From NCBI GenBank assembly GCA_965216465.1, contig CBDCFW010000004.1:224001-288000 (forward strand): DNA of 64,000 nt. The letters run 5' to 3'. The position numbers and the translations under genes were made by a program. This DNA comes from Bacteroidia bacterium. GTDB taxonomy: Bacteria > Bacteroidota > Bacteroidia > NS11-12g > UBA9320. The notes below the pieces were generated by a model. The model had not been told where the DNA came from. It was given only the letters and a program-made list of their open reading frames with translations, and made no database searches. Each line of letters opens with the position of its first letter. Within the stretch, counting starts at the first letter, position 1. Positions 335-40,577 of this stretch are shown piece by piece.

Positions 335-1357
335 ATGGCCAAAGGTAGCAGTTCATACACTCAATTCAATACTTTAATTGAACAACTCGAGCAAAATATC
401 GTGCAACCGGTTTATTTGCTTCATGGCGAAGAATACTACTTTTTAGAAAAGCTATTGAATAAAATTGAAGAGGTAACACTCGATGAGGCCACCAAAAGTT
501 TTAATCATCAGGTTTTTTATGGCAAAGATTCTAACATTCTCGACATCATAAACGTAGCGAGGCGGTATCCAATGATGGCCGATAAGCAATTGGTCGTGCT
601 TAAAGAGGCACAGCACATTCGCAAGCCCGAACTTATTGTTCCATACCTCGAAAATCCGATTCCAAGTACGGTGCTGGTTTGGTACCACCCCGGAAAGAAA
701 CTTCCGATGAATCGTAAGCCAGGCACTGCATTTAAGAAATTAACAGCTTTTAATGCGGAACCCATTTCAGAGAAAGAAGTTGTTCCGGTAGTGTCAAAGT
801 ATATAGCGGATGAGGGTTATGATATTGAGCCCAAGCCATTACATCTTCTGGTAAGCAACAGCAGTGGAAAGTTCTCACTCATCGTAAGTGAATTGGAAAA
901 AGTATTTTCCAACCTTGAAAAAGGGAATAAGATTAGAGAAGAACACATCCAGAAGTATGTTGGGATTAACAAAGACTACAATATTTTCTCGCTACAAAAA
1001 GCATTGGCACAAAAGAACAAAGTAGGGGTTGTAGAGATTATGAACTACTTCGCAAACAACCTCAACAAGAATCCTTTGGTGGTCATAAACGCGTCACTTT
1101 TTAGCTACTTCAAAAAGGTGGCGATCATGCAATCGATGGCTAGAAACACCGATAAAGAGATTATGAGTGCACTTGGAATTCCATTTTTTGCCATCGGAGA
1201 ATACAGGCAAGCCGCTAGTAATTACCGCGGTACGGCAATCAAAGAAGTAATCAACTGCATTAACGATTGCGATCTTAAGTTTAAGGGGATAAAAGAAAAC
1301 ACAGGCGGTGAACGAGAATTGTTTGAAGAAACGATCTTAAAAATACTGTCATTATAG
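335..1357 (+). CDS. holA: DNA polymerase III subunit delta
   Basis: 340 aa; VYLLHGEEYY, FNHQVFYGKD, ARRYPMMA, SELEK and YNIFSLQKAL motifs typical of Bacteroidota HolA. Confidence 0.93.
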   Translation: MAKGSSSYTQFNTLIEQLEQNIVQPVYLLHGEEYYFLEKLLNKIEEVTLDEATKSFNHQVFYGKDSNILDIINVARRYPMMADKQLVVLKEAQHIRKPELIVPYLENPIPSTVLVWYHPGKKLPMNRKPGTAFKKLTAFNAEPISEKEVVPVVSKYIADEGYDIEPKPLHLLVSNSSGKFSLIVSELEKVFSNLEKGNKIREEHIQKYVGINKDYNIFSLQKALAQKNKVGVVEIMNYFANNLNKNPLVVINASLFSYFKKVAIMQSMARNTDKEIMSALGIPFFAIGEYRQAASNYRGTAIKEVINCINDCDLKFKGIKENTGGERELFEETILKILSL

Positions 1358-1428
1358 GGTTGGTTTTCTTTTGCTTCTTCGAAGAAATTGCTATTTTGGT
1401 CGCCGATTTAAACGTAACTTAATATTAC

Positions 1429-3357
1429 ATGAAAAAAACATTACTAATTGCAATTCTGCTTAGCCCCTTCATTATGCAGGCGCAGCAGAACGTAAATTAC
1501 AGCCATCCGGTAGAAACTACTTTGGATGACGACCATAAGGAGTATAGAACTTCTTCTACAATTACTCCAGGTAAGCAAACAACTGAATTTAAAGACAAAG
1601 CTAAAGGTCACCAGTATGTACAAATCGGAGAAACTTACTACGATTTACAATCAAATGGTTCTCCTGGTGCTCGTGTAATTCTTCACGATGATGGTACTAT
1701 CTCTGCAGTTTGGACTACAAGCCCAAACGATGATTCAGGATGGCCATTAAGAGGAGCTGGTTACAATCACTATGACGGTTCTGACTGGGATGGAGTTATC
1801 TCTGACAGAATTGAAGGTGAGCGCGTAGGTTTCCCTAACATTGTACTTTTAGGTAACGGAAAAGAAGCAGTGATTTCTCACCAAGCTAACACAGTTAACT
1901 TAGGTGGTTATTACATTTCTTCAAACTCTGCTGTGGGTGCTACCGATTGGTCAACTAGCGATAGAGTTTTAGATGACGAATCAGAGCCAGGTACAAACTA
2001 TGTTCCTATCTGGAATAGAAGTGGTGCTGACGATGGATACGTTCACTTACTATCTACCTACTGGTTTAGTGAGGCAGCGAACGTACCATATCCAACTAAG
2101 AATGGTGTTAATCAGCCATTAACTTACTCAAGATCTACCGATAACGGTGCTACTTGGGATAAAGTTCATACTATACTTCCAGGCTACGATTCAACGTTCA
2201 CAAGATTCCAAAGAGTTGGTGCATACGCAATCGACGTTAAAGATTCTGTAGTAGCGATAATCTCTGGTGGTCAATACTCTCAAATCGGACTTTGGAAGTC
2301 TACTGACTACGGTGAAACATTTACCTTCACTGCAGTTGATCAATACCCTTCGGGATTTGATGAATTCATTGAGCCAGGTGATACAATTACAACTAACGAC
2401 GGAGCACTTGATGTGTTAATCGACGATAACGATAAAGTTCACGTATTTTATGGCACATGGCCATTCCTTGATGAGGATACAACTGACGGTACCATAACCA
2501 TCTTTACTGCAAGCTCAATGATTGCTCACTGGATGGAAGGAATGACTGAGCCTCAATTCTGTGGTGGTTTGATCGATATGGACCAAAACCCACAATCATT
2601 TGATATTACAAGAGAAACTTGGAACTCATTAGACGCTAACGATATTCCACAGAACAACTTAGGTGCTGCTGCACGTTATGGTTCTTCTTTCTTAGCTACT
2701 CAGCCAAGTTCTTCAATCGATGCTAACGGAAATATTTATTGTGTGTACTCAGCACCTGTTGAAGGAGTTAAAAACTTCTTGAACGTGAACTATAGAGATA
2801 TTCATGTAGTATTCTCTACAGATGGAGGTGTAACATGGGCTCCAACACAAAACTTAACTCAAGATAGAACTACAGAAAATGCCTTCCCAATGGTGGCTAA
2901 AGATGCAGACAACTTCTTACACGTGGTATTCCAACAAGATGAGTGGCCAGGTACTACCTTGTTAAACAACTCTGTTGATGGAACTCACCCGAACGATGTA
3001 AATGCAATTCAATATACCGCAGTTCCTGTTTCTACCATCTTAAACAATGAGATTGGTCAAAACTTACTAGGAGCAGAAAAGGTTGAGAAAGCTGCTGAAG
3101 TATTTGTTGTTAGCCAAAACCAACCAAATCCATTTACAGGAACTTCTGAAGTAATCATTTACCTACAAAGCGGTTCTGAAGTTACGTTAACAGTAACCGA
3201 CATTTTAGGTAATGTAGTTAACCAAGGAAACTTAGGTGTACTAGGTGCAGGAAACCACGCTATCACGATCGATGGTAATGGTCTTTCAAGTGGAATGTAT
3301 TTCTATACATTGTCTACTGTTGATCACCAAGTTACTCGCAAAATGCAAGTTAACTAA
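1429..3357 (+). CDS. T9SS type A sorting domain protein with Asp-box (BNR) repeats, probable beta-propeller
   Basis: Signal peptide; SRSTDNGATW, KSTDYGETF and FSTDGGVTW Asp-boxes; CTD QNQPNPF...LSSGMYFYTL...TRKMQVN. Confidence 0.85.
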   Translation: MKKTLLIAILLSPFIMQAQQNVNYSHPVETTLDDDHKEYRTSSTITPGKQTTEFKDKAKGHQYVQIGETYYDLQSNGSPGARVILHDDGTISAVWTTSPNDDSGWPLRGAGYNHYDGSDWDGVISDRIEGERVGFPNIVLLGNGKEAVISHQANTVNLGGYYISSNSAVGATDWSTSDRVLDDESEPGTNYVPIWNRSGADDGYVHLLSTYWFSEAANVPYPTKNGVNQPLTYSRSTDNGATWDKVHTILPGYDSTFTRFQRVGAYAIDVKDSVVAIISGGQYSQIGLWKSTDYGETFTFTAVDQYPSGFDEFIEPGDTITTNDGALDVLIDDNDKVHVFYGTWPFLDEDTTDGTITIFTASSMIAHWMEGMTEPQFCGGLIDMDQNPQSFDITRETWNSLDANDIPQNNLGAAARYGSSFLATQPSSSIDANGNIYCVYSAPVEGVKNFLNVNYRDIHVVFSTDGGVTWAPTQNLTQDRTTENAFPMVAKDADNFLHVVFQQDEWPGTTLLNNSVDGTHPNDVNAIQYTAVPVSTILNNEIGQNLLGAEKVEKAAEVFVVSQNQPNPFTGTSEVIIYLQSGSEVTLTVTDILGNVVNQGNLGVLGAGNHAITIDGNGLSSGMYFYTLSTVDHQVTRKMQVN

Positions 3358-3649: not shown

Positions 3650-5029
3650 GTGAACGTTACACTCGAGAAAAAAGATGCATTAAACGCTTTAATCACTATT
3701 GAGATTAGCAAAGATGACTATCAGGAAAAACTAGACGCACAGTTTAAAGATTACCGTAAAAAAGCTAAAATTCCAGGTTTTAGACCTGGGCAAGTTCCTC
3801 TAGGAATGGTTAAAAGCATGATCGGTAAAAGTGTACTTTACGAAGAAGTGAACAAGCTTACATCTTCAAGCTTATACGACTACCTTCAAGAAAATAAAAT
3901 TGACATTCTTGGGCAACCAATGGAAAGCGTTGATAAAGAAAGCCAAATCGATTTCGATAGCTATGGTGACTTTGTATTTCATTTTGATATTGGACTTGCA
4001 CCAGAATTCGAATTGAACATCGATACGAAAGACAAGCTAACCCGCTTTGAAGTTGAGATGGACAAAGAAGAAGTTCAAACTGAAATCAAAAACCTAAGAA
4101 GACAAAACGGTAAAATTGAAAACATTGAGAAGTCTGAGACGGACAATGACTCAATTGTGATGTTGATGACCGAATTGGATAAGAAAGGTGGTGAGCATAA
4201 AGATGGAGGCGTTTTCGAACAAGAAGTAACTGTTCTTCCTGAAGTAGTAAAAAGTAAAAAAGTTGTTAAGCAATTAATCGGTGTTTCAGTTGATGATGAA
4301 ATCGATTTAAATGTATTCGACCTTTTCAACGATAACGAAATGGTAATTGCTCACTCTTTGGGAATAGAAAAAGAGGCGGTTGCCGGTTTAAACAAAACGT
4401 TTAAAGGTAAAGTTAAGGAAATCCGTAAGGTGATTCCTGCTGCTTTAGATCAAGCATTTTACGATTTAGTTTTAGGACCAAAAGCTGTAGAAAACCAAGA
4501 AGACTTCGAGCAGAAAATTGAAGAAAACTTGGGACAATACTACGTTGCAGAAGCTGAAAAGCAATTGGAAGCTGAAGTGAATGCAATGCTTGAGAAAAAG
4601 CACCAGTTAGACCTTCCAGATGAGTTCTTGAAACGTTGGTTAACAGAAACCAAGCCAGAAACATACAACACTGAGAATATTGAAGAGTTGTATGGCAATG
4701 AGTCTAAGGTACTTAGAAAGCAATTGATTCGTGAAAAGATTGCTGAACAACAAAATGTAGAGGTTTCTGACGAAGATATCAACCAAACATCTTTTGCCTA
4801 TACTGCTCAAGTGCTAAGACAATATGGAATCAACAACCCTGATCCAGCGATGATCCAAAACTTCGAAGCTAAGAACAGAGAAGATCAAGGATACCTGTTG
4901 AGAATTAGAGATGTTGTCGTTGAGAAGAAGGTTCTTGACAAGGTGAAAGAACTTATCACTATCAAGCCTAAGAAAATCTCAGTAGAGAAATTCTACGACG
5001 AAGTAAAAAAGTTTAGCGAGAAGGCTTAG
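3650..5029 (+). CDS. tig: Trigger factor
   Basis: Ribosome-binding signature IPGFRPGQVP; upstream of clpP-clpX; GTG start. Confidence 0.95.
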   Translation: MNVTLEKKDALNALITIEISKDDYQEKLDAQFKDYRKKAKIPGFRPGQVPLGMVKSMIGKSVLYEEVNKLTSSSLYDYLQENKIDILGQPMESVDKESQIDFDSYGDFVFHFDIGLAPEFELNIDTKDKLTRFEVEMDKEEVQTEIKNLRRQNGKIENIEKSETDNDSIVMLMTELDKKGGEHKDGGVFEQEVTVLPEVVKSKKVVKQLIGVSVDDEIDLNVFDLFNDNEMVIAHSLGIEKEAVAGLNKTFKGKVKEIRKVIPAALDQAFYDLVLGPKAVENQEDFEQKIEENLGQYYVAEAEKQLEAEVNAMLEKKHQLDLPDEFLKRWLTETKPETYNTENIEELYGNESKVLRKQLIREKIAEQQNVEVSDEDINQTSFAYTAQVLRQYGINNPDPAMIQNFEAKNREDQGYLLRIRDVVVEKKVLDKVKELITIKPKKISVEKFYDEVKKFSEKA

Positions 5030-35522: not shown

Positions 35523-35552
35523 AAAGCCTTTCCGTTTGGGAAGGCTTTTTTT
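35523..35552. terminator. Intrinsic terminator between ahcY and the convergent aminotransferase gene
   Basis: AAAGCCTTTCC-GTTT-GGGAAGGCTTTTTT. Confidence 0.8.
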
Positions 35553-36270
35553 ATTTTATACGAAATACCCCACGAGTGCCTCGCGTTAAAAATACTTTGT
35601 CAGCATTTTCAATATCGTCACGGGTAATTAATTTCTGGTCTAGCTGAAATCCATAGTTCCCTAAAATGTAGCGCTGTGTAGCACCATGAACGCCACCGCA
35701 TTTGGGGTGAGGTACAATAATATCTTCAGTGCCATTCATTAGAATTATGTTGCTGCTAACTTCTTCACAAATTTCGTTTTTGTCGTTGGTTATGAATAAG
35801 TAGTCAAGATTAAGCTCTTCCTTCTTTTTAGACGCTAAAACATAATAGATGCTCGATAGACTTTTTACGGTTAACCAATCAACCATAGGTTTCGGTTTGT
35901 CGTAAAATCCATAATTGCCTTTAAACAAAGGGGCTTTGTTGAGCTCTGCAGCTAGGTCAAGAACAGTGGGAAGAAAGAAATCGTGGCTTGCTTCTTTATA
36001 GGAGTGGTTAAACGCAACTTCATTTTGATCTGGGAGATAGGTGCCAAACCCTTCTCGGAAAAAGTTCATTCTAAAAATACCATTAGCACCATAGTTCTTC
36101 GCGGTTGAAAGAATGAGTTCTTCATCGATGGTAAATTGAGGTTCCATGTCGTAAATTTCAAATCCGTCTAATATTCGTTCAACATGGTAGTAATTAAGTG
36201 GAACGTTCTGATCTACAATGCGTATGGTCTCAAAAAAACCATCGCCATATAAAAAGCCTCGATTCATCAT
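35551..36270 (-). CDS. Aminotransferase class IV (PabC/IlvE-like PLP enzyme)
   Basis: NRGFLYGDGFFETIR, H..R, VKSLS (candidate PLP Lys), ICEE.SSNI, GV.G.. Confidence 0.8.
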   Translation of the reverse strand: MMNRGFLYGDGFFETIRIVDQNVPLNYYHVERILDGFEIYDMEPQFTIDEELILSTAKNYGANGIFRMNFFREGFGTYLPDQNEVAFNHSYKEASHDFFLPTVLDLAAELNKAPLFKGNYGFYDKPKPMVDWLTVKSLSSIYYVLASKKKEELNLDYLFITNDKNEICEEVSSNIILMNGTEDIIVPHPKCGGVHGATQRYILGNYGFQLDQKLITRDDIENADKVFLTRGTRGVFRIK

Positions 36271-36330
36271 GGTGTAGCAATATTAGACAAGATGATTTGA
36301 ATTCAATAAATACAATCAAATAATCGCAAT

Positions 36331-36399
36331 TCCCAAAAACAATAAAAATCCCAAAAAGAGAATGAAATCTCAAAAAAGGACAAATTTCTCATGTTTGGA
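36331..36399. promoter_or_regulatory. Phased palindromic upstream activator sites, copy 1 (TCYC-N5-RRGA)
   Basis: Units start at 36331, 36349, 36368 and 36387 (18-19 bp period): TCCC-AAAAA-CAAT, TCCC-AAAAA-GAGA, TCTC-AAAAA-AGGA, TCTC-ATGTT-TGGA. Confidence 0.6.
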
Positions 36400-36451
36400 T
36401 ATTGTTGGCACGGCTCGGTTAATTTGTTTCTGTTGTTTGTAATACGCAGAA

Positions 36452-36464
36452 AATCAATGTATTG
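36452..36464 (+). promoter_or_regulatory. IHF-like DNA-bending site, copy 1
   Basis: AATCAATGTATTG is an exact match to WATCAANNNNTTR, lying between the upstream sites and the sigma54 promoter. Confidence 0.5.
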
Positions 36465-36503
36465 TGTGCGGTTCGAAGTGCTTATGAAATTGATTTTGCG
36501 GTT

Positions 36504-36520
36504 TTGGCACCGCTATTGGA
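36504..36520 (+). promoter_or_regulatory. Sigma54 (RpoN) -24/-12 promoter, copy 1
   Basis: TTGGCAC-CGCTA-TTGGA; canonical spacing, with GG in place of GC at -12. Confidence 0.75.
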
Positions 36521-36530
36521 TAGTATATGG

Positions 36531-36714
36531 CAGATTAAGTTCTATTGAAATTTGACCATATTAACCATCTGTCGAAAGGCAGAAAATATATAAGAAGTTG
36601 ATAAAACAACAAACTACTACTACTAACTATTTGAATTAAACGAATTTTTTGTTTTTTCATTATTAACCATTACGTTTTACATTAAAAGCTCTGCCGCAAA
36701 GCAGGGCTTTTTTT
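36531..36714 (+). ncRNA. Candidate sigma54-dependent small RNA, copy 1 (~184 nt)
   Basis: Runs from the predicted +1 (CAGATTA) to an intrinsic terminator; GAAA hairpin at 36568-36583; 41-nt block 36592-36632 and 20-nt block 36659-36678 identical to copy 2; no long ORF. Confidence 0.72.
36684..36714 (+). terminator. Intrinsic terminator of sRNA copy 1
   Basis: AAAAGCTCTGC-CGCAAA-GCAGGGC followed by T7. Confidence 0.85.
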
Positions 36715-36757
36715 ATGCTCTGAATTTAAGGATCTCGTAATTACAGAAACGAGAAAA

Positions 36758-36809
36758 GTCTAAAAAAGAGACAAGAATCTAAAAAAGAGACGAAATGTTG
36801 ATTTTTGGA
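36758..36809. promoter_or_regulatory. Phased palindromic upstream activator sites, copy 2
   Basis: GTCTAAAAAAGAGAC (36758-36772) and ATCTAAAAAAGAGAC (36777-36791) 19 bp apart, plus a degenerate third site ending TGGA at 36809; same distance to +1 as copy 1 within 1 bp. Confidence 0.6.
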
Positions 36810-36914
36810 ATAGGGATTCGTGTCTCAAAAATTTCGTTATATATATTTGTAAACTGCACATAATCAGTGGTTAATGATGCAATTTCGGGTAATTGTTACA
36901 CCAATTTTTCTTTT

Positions 36915-36931
36915 TTGGCACTGGTATTGGA
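36915..36931 (+). promoter_or_regulatory. Sigma54 (RpoN) -24/-12 promoter, copy 2
   Basis: TTGGCAC-TGGTA-TTGGA; same spacing and same -12 variant as copy 1. Confidence 0.75.
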
Positions 36932-36941
36932 TACTATATAC

Positions 36942-37130
36942 CAGATTACGTTCTACCGAATTTTGAAATAATTACCTCAGACAACCGAAAGGTTCGACAG
37001 AGTTTATATATAAAGAAGTTGATAAAACAACAAACTACTACTACTAACTATTTTTTGATGAATCTTTAAGATTCGATTATTAACCATTACGTTTTTTAAT
37101 TAAGCCCAGACAGAATCGTCTGGGCTTTTT
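36942..37130 (+). ncRNA. Candidate sigma54-dependent small RNA, copy 2 (~189 nt)
   Basis: Starts CAGATTA at the predicted +1; AACC-GAAA-GGTT hairpin at 36983-36994; identical blocks at 37013-37053 and 37076-37095; GAATCT-TTA-AGATTC hairpin at 37060-37074; own terminator. Confidence 0.72.
37102..37130 (+). terminator. Intrinsic terminator of sRNA copy 2
   Basis: AAGCCCAGAC-AGAATC-GTCTGGGCTT perfect 10-bp stem plus T run. Confidence 0.88.
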
Positions 37131-37172
37131 ATTTGCTCTTATTTTCCAATATTTAATCTTTGGAGTTTCCTT

Positions 37173-37180
37173 TATCTTTG
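37173..37180 (+). promoter_or_regulatory. SigmaA -7 box of icmF
   Basis: TATCTTTG, downstream of the sRNA terminator and 16 nt before the ATG. Confidence 0.7.
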
Positions 37181-37196
37181 CACCCCAATTTATCAT

Positions 37197-40100
37197 ATGG
37201 AAAATACACCAGCTTATACCCCAAATAATAAAGTTAGAGTTGTTACTGCAGCTTCTCTGTTTGATGGACACGATGCCGCTATTAATGTTATGCGTCGTAT
37301 TATTCAAGCAACAGGTTGTGAGGTAATACATCTTGGCCATGATAGAAGTGCTGAAGAAGTAGTGAATACTGCAATTCAGGAAGACGCTAACGCTATCGCC
37401 ATGACTAGCTATCAAGGGGGACATAATGAATATTTTAAATATATGTATGATCTGCTTAAAGAAAAAGGGGCAGGCCATATTAAACTCTTCGGTGGAGGAG
37501 GTGGTACTATTCTTCCTTCAGAAATTGAAGATCTAGAGAACTACGGTATCGCAAAAATCTACCATCCAGACGATGGAAGAGCTATGGGGCTGCAAGGTAT
37601 GATTAACGACCTTGTTCAAAAATCTGATTTTCCAACCGGTTATGGATTGAATGGTGAGGTAGAAAGCTTTAGAGATCGAAATAAGATGTCGATTGCTAAG
37701 GTCATTTCTGCGGCAGAAAACTTTCCTGAAGAGAACAAAGCACTACTTGATGGCATTAAGGCTGAAGCTCAGGCTATTAGCACTCCAGTTTTGGGAATCA
37801 CAGGTACAGGTGGAGCAGGTAAGAGTAGTTTAGTTGATGAATTGGTACGTCGATTTTTATTAGACTTTCCAGAAAAGAACATTGCCATTATTTCTGTTGA
37901 TCCTTCAAAAAGAAAAACGGGTGGGGCACTTTTGGGTGATCGAATTCGAATGAATAGTATTCGTAACGATCGTGTTTATATGCGCTCATTGGCAACGCGT
38001 CAGGCTAATCTAGCACTTTCAGCTCATATCGATACGGCGAAAGACATTCTCAAGGTAGCAGGTTACGATTTGATTATTCTTGAAACATCAGGTATTGGTC
38101 AAAGTGATACGGAAATTACAGACCATAGTGATTTAAGTCTGTATGTGATGACACCTGAGTATGGGGCGGCTACACAGTTGGAGAAAATTGACATGCTTGA
38201 TTTTGCAGATGTCATTGCCATCAACAAGTTTGACAAGCGTGGAGCTCTGGATGCCTTGCGTGATGTAAAAAAACAATTTCAACGCAACCACAAAAGGTTT
38301 GAAGAAGATGCTGATACAATGCCTGTTTATGGCACAATTGCGAGTCAATTTAATGACCCTGGCGTTAATGCATTGTATGCTAAGCTGATTGATACGATTA
38401 ATACAAAAACTGAACATCAGTTTGACACTTCATACTCAACCGAACAAGAGCTCTCTGAGAAGATATACATCATCCCACCGAAGCGTGTTCGATACCTTTC
38501 TGAAATTGCAGAGAATAATAGAGGCTACGACGAGTGGGCTAAAAAACAAAGTGAAATTGCTCAGAAGCTGTATGGACTAAAAAAGACTATCAGCACCATT
38601 CAAGAAACAGCAGTTACAGACGGAGACCGCTTGATTAAAGATCTTGAAGAAACCTATAGCAAGATTGCCTTGGACTTTGATCCAAAGTTGCAAAAATTGA
38701 TTGATGAATGGGATAGTATAAAAGAAGCATATGCCAACGATATTTACACTTACCTGGTACGTAACAAGGAGATAAAGGTTGAAACTAAAACTACTTCATT
38801 ATCGCACCAAAAAATCAGTAAGGTTGCTTTACCAAAATACGAAGCCTGGGGAGATGTATTGCGGTGGAATTTGCAAGAAAATGTTCCTGGGAAGTTTCCG
38901 TTTACAGCAGGTATCTATCCATTTAAGCGACAAGGTGAGGACCCTACTCGAATGTTTGCGGGAGAAGGTGGTCCTGAAAGAACGAATAAACGTTTTCACT
39001 ACCTGAGCAGCGATATGCCTGCAAAGCGATTAAGTACGGCATTTGACTCGGTTACTCTATATGGTAATGACCCAGACTATCGTCCTGATATTTACGGTAA
39101 AATTGGAAATGCAGGTGTAAGTATCTGCTGTTTAGATGATGCTAAAAAACTCTATTCTGGATTCAACTTGGCAAATCCTATGACTTCAGTGTCTATGACG
39201 ATTAATGGTCCAGCTCCAATGTTGTTGGGTTATTTTATGAATGCAGCAATTGACCAGCAATGTGAGATCTACATCAAAGAAAATGGGCTAGAGGATGATG
39301 TCAAAAAGAAAATTGATGCTTACTTCAAGGAACGAAATTCAGAACAACCTAAATACAATGGTGAGCTTCCAGCAGGGAACGATGGTTTAGGATTGATGTT
39401 ACTTGGTTTGACCGGTGATAAAGTATTGCCAGCTGAGGTATATGCCGAAATCAAAAAGAATACCTTAGCTCAAGTGAGAGGAACTGTTCAGGCAGATATT
39501 CTAAAAGAAGACCAAGCTCAAAATACATGCATTTTCTCAACGGAGTTTGCCCTTCGACTAATGGGTGATGTTCAGCAGTATTTCAATCAAAATAATGTAA
39601 GAAACTTCTATTCTGTTTCTATATCAGGTTATCATATAGCAGAAGCTGGAGCAAATCCAATTACTCAATTGGCATTTACTTTAGCTAATGGATTCACTTA
39701 TGTAGAATACTACTTAAGTAGAGGAATGAATATCAACGACTTTGGGCCAAATCTAAGCTTCTTTTTCTCGAATGGAATTGATCCAGAGTATGCAGTAATT
39801 GGTAGAGTTGCTCGTAGAATTTGGGCTAAAGCCATGAAGTTGAAATACGGAGCTAATGAGCGAAGCCAAATGTTGAAATACCACATTCAAACAAGTGGTA
39901 GAAGTTTACACGCTCAAGAAATCGACTTTAACGATATAAGAACTACGTTGCAGGCACTTTATGCAATTTATGACAACTGTAACAGTTTGCATACCAATGC
40001 GTACGACGAGGCAATTACTACACCTACTGAAGAGAGTGTGCGACGAGCGGTAGCCATTCAACTAATTATTAATCGTGAATTGGGTCTTGCTAAAAATGAG

Positions 40101-40577
40101 AACCCATTGCAGGGTTCATTTATTATTGAAGAGTTGACTGATTTAGTTGAAGAAGCTGTGTTGCAAGAGTTTGATCGAATTACTGAAAGAGGGGGGGTGT
40201 TAGGAGCTATGGAAACGATGTACCAACGTAGTAAAATTCAGGAAGAAAGCTTGTATTACGAAACACTTAAACATACTGGCGAATACCCAATTATTGGTGT
40301 AAACACTTTCTTGAGCTCTAAAGGATCACCAACCATCTTACCGAAAGAGGTAATAAGAGCTACAGAAGATGAGAAGAAATTCCAGATCAATACATTGCAG
40401 TCGCTTAATACCCGCAACGAAGAAGAAGCGAATACTCAGCTTAAGAATATACAGCAAGTTGCATTAGACAATGGAAATGTATTTGAAGCTTTGATGGAAG
40501 TTTCGAAGTATTGTTCTCTCGGACAAATTACGAATGCTCTGTTCGAAGTTGGTGGCCAATACCGACGAAATATGTAA
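37197..40577 (+). CDS. icmF: Fused isobutyryl-CoA mutase / MeaB-like GTPase chaperone
   Basis: 1126 aa; B12-binding FDGHDAA, GTPase GTGGAGKSS / VDPS / ETSGIGQ / NKFD, mutase domain with TRMFAG (Phe, ICM-type rather than the Tyr of MCM), ends GQYRRNM. Confidence 0.93.

Follow-up and report, generated by a model that had tools for sequence, protein, structure and literature searches.

What is encoded in the gap between an aminotransferase gene and icmF in the genome of an uncultured Bacteroidia bacterium, where two similar non-coding blocks follow each other? The gap belongs to a stretch of 64,000 nts (contig CBDCFW010000004.1 of GenBank assembly GCA_965216465.1, positions 224,001 to 288,000 of the forward strand), which was analysed as a whole and is called the window; positions below refer to it unless a contig or locus is named. 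A preliminary description, made from the letters of the window, proposed a tandem pair of sigma-54-dependent small RNA (sRNA) genes. Comparison with related genomes indicates that the conserved RNA gene is almost certainly real and that the units represent an undescribed RNA family of three genera, all belonging to one family of uncultured Bacteroidia. Both RNAs are probably sigma-54-dependent, judging from the regions upstream of them.

Two RNA units upstream of icmF

On one side of the gap lies a class IV aminotransferase gene (35551-36270, minus strand), on the other the gene encoding IcmF (37197-40577, plus strand), and the annotation agrees with the neighbours named in the preliminary description. 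The two units occupy positions 36505-36714 and 36916-37130, their promoters are offset by 411 bp, and they share 76% identity (BLAST, 36503-36678) between flanks that have diverged. A 41-mer and a 20-mer are identical in both (Table 1); each occurs just twice in the window, at exactly the coordinates first given, and neither identity can be extended by one base on either side. The promoters, described as TTGGCAC-N5-TTGGA, were found in their places (TTGGCACCGCTATTGGA, 36504-36520; TTGGCACTGGTATTGGA, 36915-36931), and the proposed start on a common CAGATTA was recovered as well (CAGATTAAGTTCTA at 36531; CAGATTACGTTCTA at 36942), with CAGATTA(A/C)GTTCTA at the predicted start of both RNAs. Each unit has the similar 5′ end and the GAAA-loop hairpin noted earlier, and each ends in a terminator-like hairpin of its own (36684-36711 and 37102-37127), with unlike stems as claimed; four such hairpins were found in 1.5 kb, where 0.9 were expected.

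According to BLAST and to the two covariance models described below, the genome that contains the window (G000; 3.23 Mb in six contigs, 100% complete by markers) has only these two copies. A weak third match (C1:50678-50812) lies inside a gene and was discarded. DNA contigs (depth 2-5) from the four best sequencing runs break at the repeated 41-mer and are uninformative on expression.

Distribution of the RNA family

When 60 relatives were searched with BLAST, G008 and G024 proved to have tandem pairs and G014 one copy, all directly 5′ of icmF. More members came from two covariance models, R1 built from 10 units and R2 from 16 units. RNAalifold on a MAFFT alignment recovered only five terminator pairs, the variable hairpins being misaligned; hence both models are sequence-only and hairpins were judged per sequence. 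The promoter formed no part of the queries by which the homologues were found, and it turned up in the results nevertheless. Altogether, 17 intact units were found in 11 genomes, own genome included, in addition to a truncated copy (G021) and a degenerate copy (G019). By genus, the RNA was detected in 9 of 27 relatives in genus g1, in two of three genomes in g22 and in the single genome of g6. Promoter distance, the first hairpin (H1) and the terminator were measured on 16 units, and motif presence was counted over 17. A pattern made from transcript motifs only, run against one genome each of 185,579 species, matched seven stretches, six of which are real and come without exception from uncultured Bacteroidia assemblies; the seventh (L039) was a chance match on inspection.

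None of the described RNA families in Rfam 15 reaches its gathering score over either unit, as the preliminary description had led us to expect, and in the window only a tRNA elsewhere does so. A permissive search of positions 36250-37250 (E up to 10) gave 16 sub-threshold matches, the best being STnc370 with 32.9 bits against a gathering score of 54, over the terminator region. Qrr (RF00378) does not reach its gathering score anywhere in the window and is absent from these 16 matches. Similarly, CrcZ/CrcY, GlmY/GlmZ and the other Rfam 15 families gave no gathering-score match. In the literature on sigma-54 (RpoN)-controlled sRNAs of Flavobacteria and Bacteroidetes, no description of this RNA family was found.

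Beyond the three genera, matches were weak. At the family level, R2 gave a best match with E between 0.004 and 0.043 in 11 genomes, and those inspected in five of them (L123-L127) were all false; the weak R2 matches of G080, G071, G025, G083 and G084, together with extra ones in G024, G000 and G008, were not inspected. A weak second match in G074 (L139) was also false on inspection. In the sister family of the same order, 5 of 85 genomes had matches at E 0.001-0.007, and all five were inspected and show neither promoter nor boxes. In the class outside the family, 8 of 147 sampled genomes had matches at E 4.7e-5 to 8e-3, of which the best three were inspected and found unconvincing. Because the searches outside the family were samples, the RNA is described here as not found in the genomes searched rather than as absent elsewhere.

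The promoter region

The motif TGG[CT]A[CT]-N5-TTG stands upstream of all 17 units, in the form TGGCAC-N5-TTG in both units of the window, and the distance from its TGG to the conserved 5′ box is 36-40 nts in the 16 units measured. The homologues described above hence have both the promoter upstream and, in 16 of the 16 units analysed, a terminator after, which agrees with the preliminary description. The six real matches of the pattern search all carry the motif, as do six of eight new covariance-model matches, 29-31 nts before the model start; the exceptions are the degenerate copy of G019 and a false match inside a gene. In the 64 kb of the window, the pattern TGGCACNNNNATTGNAT matches twice, both times at the units (0.01 expected; none of 100 shuffles gave at least two). 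The own genome encodes one rpoN, which is complete (AID, CBD and DBD domains), as well as four sigma-54 activators, whose full-length matches to PF00158 score 230-246 bits, so that the machinery invoked by the preliminary description is encoded.

Further upstream, paired A-rich repeats TCYMAAAAAGRGA lie at -156 and -137 in both units. In an alignment of 15 sRNA promoters (A4), such repeats have the consensus GTCTAAAAAAGAGA-N6-TCTCAAAAAGRGAC at about -160 to -130, and a block resembling WATCAR-N4-TTR, which we take to be the consensus of the integration host factor (IHF), lies at about -75 with a conserved column block GTAA..TGCAGAnAATCAG. Both the repeats and the IHF-like block are conserved across genera and are candidate protein-binding sites.

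It is improbable, given these features, that TGGCAC-N4-ATTG is instead the site of another regulator, or a lineage-specific promoter of another sigma factor, in front of an RNA that is real and not sigma-54-dependent. Such a reading draws on two observations. The -12 element of the units is TTGG, TTGA or TTGT and lacks the conserved GC of the canonical TTGC(A/T), which counts against sigma-54. In addition, many homologous promoters in relatives carry a second TGGCAC, TGGCAT or TGGTAC before the -24 element, at a distance of exactly 11 nts (L020, L033, L035, L038) or 22 nts (L047, L049, L050), which corresponds to one or two helical turns; the units of the window have no such second element. 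However, the -24 half is the full consensus TGGCAC at the exact spacing to TTG, the distant A-rich repeats and the IHF-like site fit activation by an enhancer, and no TAnnTTTG box, presumably the housekeeping -7 box of Bacteroidota, could be read before the RNA. Moreover, the motif recurs before genes: of 51 TGGCA[CT]-N5-TTG sites in the own genome, 22 lie outside open reading frames (ORFs) of at least 90 aa, mostly 20-120 nts before an ORF and with TTG[A/T/G], and these 22 repeat the -12 form TTG[A/T/G]A. In five relatives, the pattern TGGCAYNNNNATTGNA has 43 matches as compared with 8 for a reversed control. A study of Flavobacterium psychrophilum (PMC9723704) describes a -24/-12 motif validated by mutagenesis on one operon. 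As the rule at the other candidate sites of the own genome and of relatives, the non-GC -12 element looks like a trait of the lineage. Because the -12 element lacks the GC, recognition by sigma-54 rests on the recurrence of the motif and not on the textbook consensus, which weakens the case for it.

Unit 1 has an extra element, TTGGCACGGCTCGGTTAATTTG (36405-36425), about 100 bp 5′ of its promoter. The near-identical TTGGCACGGTTGGTTTATTTG stands at the same relative place before a cargo gene of the type IX secretion system (T9SS) on contig C5 (L061:2914-2934), and related TGGCAC/GTGCCA elements occur in relatives.

Independence of the units

The position of the units also allows a quite different view, in which they are cis-acting leaders of icmF, transcribed from a sigma-54 start, with icmF being reached only by readthrough of the terminator (attenuation). 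Eight genomes of the genus, among them the own genome, indeed have icmF on the same strand 65-120 nts after the end of the last unit. However, in G074, G075 and G032 the unit stands beside the same aminotransferase gene and what lies downstream is a convergent gene for a TPR-adenylate cyclase. Furthermore, G001, G017 and G021 carry a further copy at an unrelated locus, which in G001 and G017 lies before a 326-aa gene. A cis-acting leader of icmF is rejected because of these convergent downstream genes and of the second locus, and we regard it as highly improbable. In the window itself, what comes after unit 1 is unit 2, and no sign of an alternative antiterminator pairing was noticed. A TAnnTTTG box (TATCTTTG, 37173-37180) separates the second terminator from the icmF start and is also present in relatives, so that icmF would have its own promoter. 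The chance is equally small that the invariant blocks owe their identity to gene conversion among the tandem copies of an element that is silent or in decay, and not to selection. The two copies of G008 are identical over the promoter and the 5′ half, which points to a conversion or duplication not long ago, and the truncated and degenerate copies of G021 and G019 would suit decay. The blocks are nevertheless kept between species and genera, beyond the reach of conversion, the single-copy genomes G014, G004 and G023 keep them too, and the stems of H1 and of the terminator show paired substitutions. The preliminary description had taken the blocks as probably selected on the ground that the linker sequence diverged, and their persistence across species and genera is in line with this.

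A candidate activator and its putative regulon

Among the four activators of the own genome, we lean towards a REC-AAA-HTH regulator (G000:C5:494879-496309) as the one acting on the RNA promoters. It is a REC-AAA protein with a Fis-type HTH visible at its C-terminus, and it is followed by a 112-aa gene for a histidine phosphotransfer (Hpt) protein (both genes G000:C5:494517-496309; L059:1018-2810, minus strand). The adjacency of Hpt and activator is kept in the five genomes examined. With 350.7 bits against the LuxO model, whose cut-off is 800, the regulator is not a LuxO orthologue. An orthologue (at least 70% identity) is present in 13 of 27 relatives of the genus and missing from 14. In the genus, the RNA occurs in nine genomes, each of which has the orthologue. 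The 14 activator-less genomes gave no convincing RNA match, one having an uninspected match at E 0.028 and another a match that was false on inspection. As for the other activators, a PspF-like one is present in 26 of 27 relatives, an NtrX-like one in nearly all, and a fourth, which is devoid of an HTH, in only two; in this comparison, the REC-AAA-HTH regulator is the only activator whose presence tracks the RNA. The preliminary description had inferred a Qrr-like circuit, and an activator encoded beside an Hpt gene, as luxO is beside luxU, supports it.

Several observations weigh against the assignment. Four genomes carry the activator and no detected RNA, and the activator, at 63-78% identity, is likewise present with no detectable RNA in most of the family's other genera. 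Moreover, the assignment is a phyletic correlation among related and non-independent genomes, combined with loose synteny, and a single loss event may account for it.

The A-rich repeats point to further members of the regulon. A scan of the own genome found 16 matches in 3.2 Mb, of which seven lie 104-165 bp 5′ of a TGGCAC-N5-TTG: four at the sRNA units, two before genes encoding a T9SS C-terminal sorting domain (C1:24225-26042, L060:3226-5043, minus strand; C5:342088-343110, L061:3089-4111, plus strand) and one before a non-coding stretch 2.1 kb from the activator. From this shared arrangement, the two T9SS genes probably belong to the same regulon as the sRNAs.

A promoter of the same architecture lies about 2 kb from the activator in both G000 and G032. 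In G000 (C5:~498190-498421, minus strand; L059 ~4700-4925), an A-rich repeat, an IHF-like block and TGGCACACGGATTGAAT precede about 210 nts of non-coding sequence and a terminator. This stretch was considered as a third sRNA or as a pairing partner through a complement of the ACUACUAC core, and rejected: the duplex (-18.1 kcal/mol) was equalled by 14 of 1500 random 211-nt segments, the whole-RNA duplexes were matched by 21 and 72 of 200 shuffles, and the stretch is not conserved, with short terminator-like matches only in 2 of 27 genomes of the genus. At the equivalent position, G032 has a sigma-54-type promoter followed by a secreted-protein gene. The stretch in G000 is best read as what probably remains of the leader of a vanished gene, and its complementarity as probably due to chance.

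At locus L098 of G008 (1292-1501, minus strand) and locus L097 of G024, a sigma-54-type promoter is followed by about 190 nts of non-coding sequence with ACAACUACUACUCCC and a hairpin, after which come a second sigma-54-type promoter and a secreted-protein gene. These 190 or so nts possibly represent another sRNA, or else a long leader within the same regulon.

RNA structure and possible mode of action

In the unit alignment, the conserved boxes are AUUACGUUCU at the 5′ end, ACUACUA(A/C), whose core is kept in all units, and UUAAC(C/U)AUUACGU(U/C)UU (box B), which is present in one to three copies in relatives, the more distant members having two or three. Per RNA, ACUA[AC] occurs two to five times and ACGYYYU one to four times. 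The boxes are predicted to be accessible, with an unpaired probability of 0.86 for box A as compared with 0.50 for whole RNAs, and of 0.90 for the core AAACUACUACUACUAACUAUUU of sRNA 1 as compared with 0.53 over the whole RNA. Between them, the hairpins vary in sequence and are kept in place. A conserved AUAUAAAAA linker is directly preceded by H1, which all 16 units have in the same place, with a mean z of -3.16 relative to shuffles, and a strong hairpin followed by a T run ends 16 of 16 units; the stems of both differ between species by paired substitutions. Ten of the 16 units contain one to five extra hairpins with covarying G+C stems and a conserved loop NUGAU(G/U)A (NUGAUKA), which in two of these ten is also displayed by the terminator loop. 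No conserved ORF was seen by inspection of the units, the sole recurring ATG opening three codons and being missing from the window units.

The following explanation is put forward tentatively, its chances as a whole being somewhat short of even. The gap would contain two paralogous genes, each transcribed on its own, whose products are trans-acting non-coding RNAs about 185-190 nts long. Each would have a complete enhancer-dependent sigma-54 promoter, in which A-rich activator sites (about -160/-140) and an IHF-like bend site (about -75) precede TGGCAC-N4-ATTGNA at -24/-12, and each would stop at a separate intrinsic terminator. Synthesis of the RNAs would be governed by a phosphorelay from a hybrid kinase through Hpt to the activator, and the same promoter architecture would also drive the two genes for T9SS-secreted proteins. 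Each RNA would present invariant G-free single-stranded boxes (AUUACGUUCU, ACUACUACUAACUA, UUAACCAUUACGUUUU) between variable hairpins and, in what is the weakest step, might titrate a factor that binds mRNA leaders, for example one of two RRM proteins, as CrcZ and RsmZ do.

Such a decoy action comes close to an even chance. It is slightly favoured over base pairing because the boxes are multi-copy, because hairpins presenting a loop occur in relatives and because same-sense ACUACUAC stands just 5′ of start codons. In the own genome, ACUACUAC lies within 45 nts 5′ of eight guessed start codons, against a mean of 1.9 for 560 permutations of the same composition, among which it ranks 10th. Of nine genes with ACUACUA or CUACUAC in their leader that were annotated, four encode histidine kinases and three T9SS cargo. 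These genes have TAnnTTTG-type promoters and not sigma-54 ones, and one leader of a hybrid kinase also contains UAUUAACCAUU, corresponding to 11 nts of box B. In relatives, three sigma-54-driven leaders of secreted-protein genes end in ACUACUA...AUG. As for possible partners, the preliminary description had noted that Hfq and CsrA are generally lacking in Bacteroidota, and neither was found in the own genome, which encodes two RRM_1 proteins (G000:C3:219962-220171 and C6:93003-93212). To our knowledge, Hfq, ProQ-type and CsrA regulators are all missing from the phylum Bacteroidota. A more specific version, in which a LuxU-LuxO-like phosphorelay drives multi-copy RNAs that copy the ACUACUAC and UAUUAACCAUU found beside the start codons of kinase and T9SS-cargo genes, titrate an RRM-type or other leader-binding protein and feed back on the kinases of their own pathway, would amount to a decoy layer of the CrcZ/RsmZ type made of different components and is considered quite unlikely.

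The same genes under the same sigma-54 control might instead pair with mRNAs and alter their translation or stability, as Qrr, GibS and Rfp18 do, using as seeds the 5′-terminal AUUACGUUCU and the other G-free single-stranded boxes. We consider this possible, on the doubtful side. Several points speak for it and, by the same token, against decoy action. In each of the 16 units, the box with the strongest conservation is the 5′-terminal one, a location typical of base-pairing seeds, and the boxes are predicted to be single-stranded. Pairing is the mode known for the Bacteroidota sRNAs characterised to date, such as GibS and Rfp18, and repeated seeds occur in bacteria devoid of Hfq. Rfp18 of F. 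psychrophilum is reported (PMC9723704) to act on metalloprotease mRNAs. As regards decoy action itself, the enrichment of the leader motif is modest and was noticed first and tested afterwards, and the two units of the window have no NUGAUKA-loop hairpins, so that this module cannot be essential. However, when four boxes were compared with 2622 guessed start regions using RNAduplex, the best energies were no better than those of shuffled queries (box A, -21.1 vs -20.4 and -21.7; box B, -18.7 vs -20.1 and -19.0). Because the gene starts were guessed, this failed target scan is weak evidence against pairing. The start regions of Bacteroidota are A-rich and devoid of a Shine-Dalgarno sequence, and the complement of the boxes is G/U-rich and unlike them. 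The variation in copy number of box B, from one to three across lineages, is a further point against pairing. A mode of action other than decoy or pairing appears unlikely.

Features of the locus

The features read from the sequence of the gap, and the gene leaders with ACUACUAC, are listed in Table 1.

Table 1. Predicted elements of the two RNA units, with example leaders elsewhere in the genome (window positions, except where a contig is given).
Feature	Position	Strand	Basis and remarks
Unit 1, candidate activator sites (two A-rich repeats, TCCCAAAAAGAGA and TCTCAAAAAAGGA)	36349-36361 and 36368-36380	+	19 bp apart; ~156 and ~137 bp 5′ of the -24 element
Unit 1, IHF-like site AATCAATGTATTG (WATCAR-N4-TTR)	36452-36464	+	Between repeats and promoter; read from sequence
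Unit 1, sigma-54-type promoter TGGCAC-CGCT-ATTGGAT	36505-36521	+	-24 and -12 elements
sRNA 1, ~184 nt	36531-36714	+	Putative start from promoter geometry, putative end from T run; covariance model E 2.6e-24 (R1), 1.6e-23 (R2)
sRNA 1, hairpin H1, TCTGTC-GAAA-GGCAGA	36568-36583	+	Folding
sRNA 1, invariant 41-mer	36592-36632	+	Small hairpin GTTG-ATAAAA-CAAC, then single-stranded G-free core AAACUACUACUACUAACUAUUU
sRNA 1, invariant 20-mer AUUAUUAACCAUUACGUUUU (box B)	36659-36678	+	Identity to copy 2
sRNA 1, intrinsic terminator	36684-36714	+	Terminator prediction
Unit 2, candidate activator sites (TCTAAAAAAGAGA twice)	36759-36771 and 36778-36790	+	Motif scan, promoter alignment
Unit 2, IHF-like site AATCAGTGGTTAA	36862-36874	+	Sequence reading, promoter alignment
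Unit 2, sigma-54-type promoter TGGCAC-TGGT-ATTGGAT	36916-36932	+	Sequence
sRNA 2, ~189 nt	36942-37130	+	Covariance model E 1.2e-25 (R1), 2.9e-23 (R2)
sRNA 2, hairpin H1, imperfect, tip ACC-GAAA-GGT	36976-37002	+	Weakest of 16 units, z -0.74
sRNA 2, invariant 41-mer, copy 2	37013-37053	+	Identity
sRNA 2, invariant 20-mer, copy 2	37076-37095	+	Identity
sRNA 2, intrinsic terminator	37102-37130	+	Terminator prediction
Example genes with ACUACUAC in leader	C3:250866, C6:141072-143708, C6:710195		Own genome

Comparison with known systems

In Vibrio, LuxU and LuxO control the redundant sRNAs Qrr1-5, LuxO being a response-regulator activator of sigma-54 encoded beside a small Hpt gene, and the RNAs need Hfq. 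The present system is similar in that the candidate activator adjoins an Hpt gene and that several sRNA genes exist. Every gene comes with a separate -24/-12 promoter and terminator, and the core blocks do not differ between paralogues. It differs in that the RNAs have no match to Qrr in sequence or structure in Rfam and are twice as long, the activator is not a LuxO orthologue, Hfq was not found in the genome, and the sRNA genes are not beside the activator, whose link to the promoters is an inferred one here.

In Pseudomonas, CbrA-CbrB drives one to three paralogous sRNAs (CrcZ/CrcY), in some cases encoded near one another, which titrate an RNA-binding protein, their A-rich motifs binding Hfq/Crc. 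A two-component activator of sigma-54, paralogous sRNAs and a repeated short single-stranded motif shared with mRNA leaders are common to both systems. Unlike in Pseudomonas, Hfq and Crc are lacking in the own genome, no Rfam match was obtained and titration is hypothetical. Similarly, GlrK-GlrR of Enterobacteriaceae controls GlmY and GlmZ, which are encoded at unlinked loci with overlapping sigma-70 promoters and have glmS and RapZ as target and adaptor. Both systems comprise a homologous sRNA pair whose sigma-54-type promoters come with IHF or IHF-like sites and, some 100-200 bp upstream, with known or candidate sites for an activator, and one member of the GlmY/GlmZ pair is a protein decoy; the sequences are unrelated, and GlmY and GlmZ are unlinked, unlike the pair in the window.

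The design, in which a two-component activator of sigma-54 drives redundant sRNAs, is hence already known from Proteobacteria, and a Bacteroidota RNA points in the same direction. A table of -24/-12 (SM4) promoters of F. psychrophilum (PMC9723704) lists a "putative regulatory RNA Rfp36" beside a gliding operon and exported proteins. The novelty put forward in the preliminary description thus stands as regards Rfam, where the RNA has no family, and is qualified as regards the arrangement, a sigma-54-type promoter before a putative sRNA having already been listed in that table. Rfp36 resembles the RNAs described here in following a -24/-12 promoter in a Bacteroidota genome, and the co-expressed gliding and exported-protein genes of the table (PMC9723704) parallel the T9SS cargo genes. 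This comparison rests on the table entry of PMC9723704; the covariance models found nothing convincing in the 147 class genomes outside the family, a sample in which the membership of Flavobacterium is unsure.

Significance

The narrow range of the RNA family, three genera within one family of uncultured bacteria, restricts its significance. Little has been mapped of post-transcriptional control in Bacteroidota, a phylum devoid of the classic sRNA chaperones, and an upstream signal is known for few of its sRNAs. Against this background, the family offers a whole testable circuit, in which a well-conserved, unusually complete control region is combined with a candidate activator, the Hpt protein encoded beside it and putatively co-regulated secreted-protein genes. 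In addition, the repeated single-stranded boxes and the loop-presenting hairpins of relatives provide concrete baits for an RNA-binding partner.

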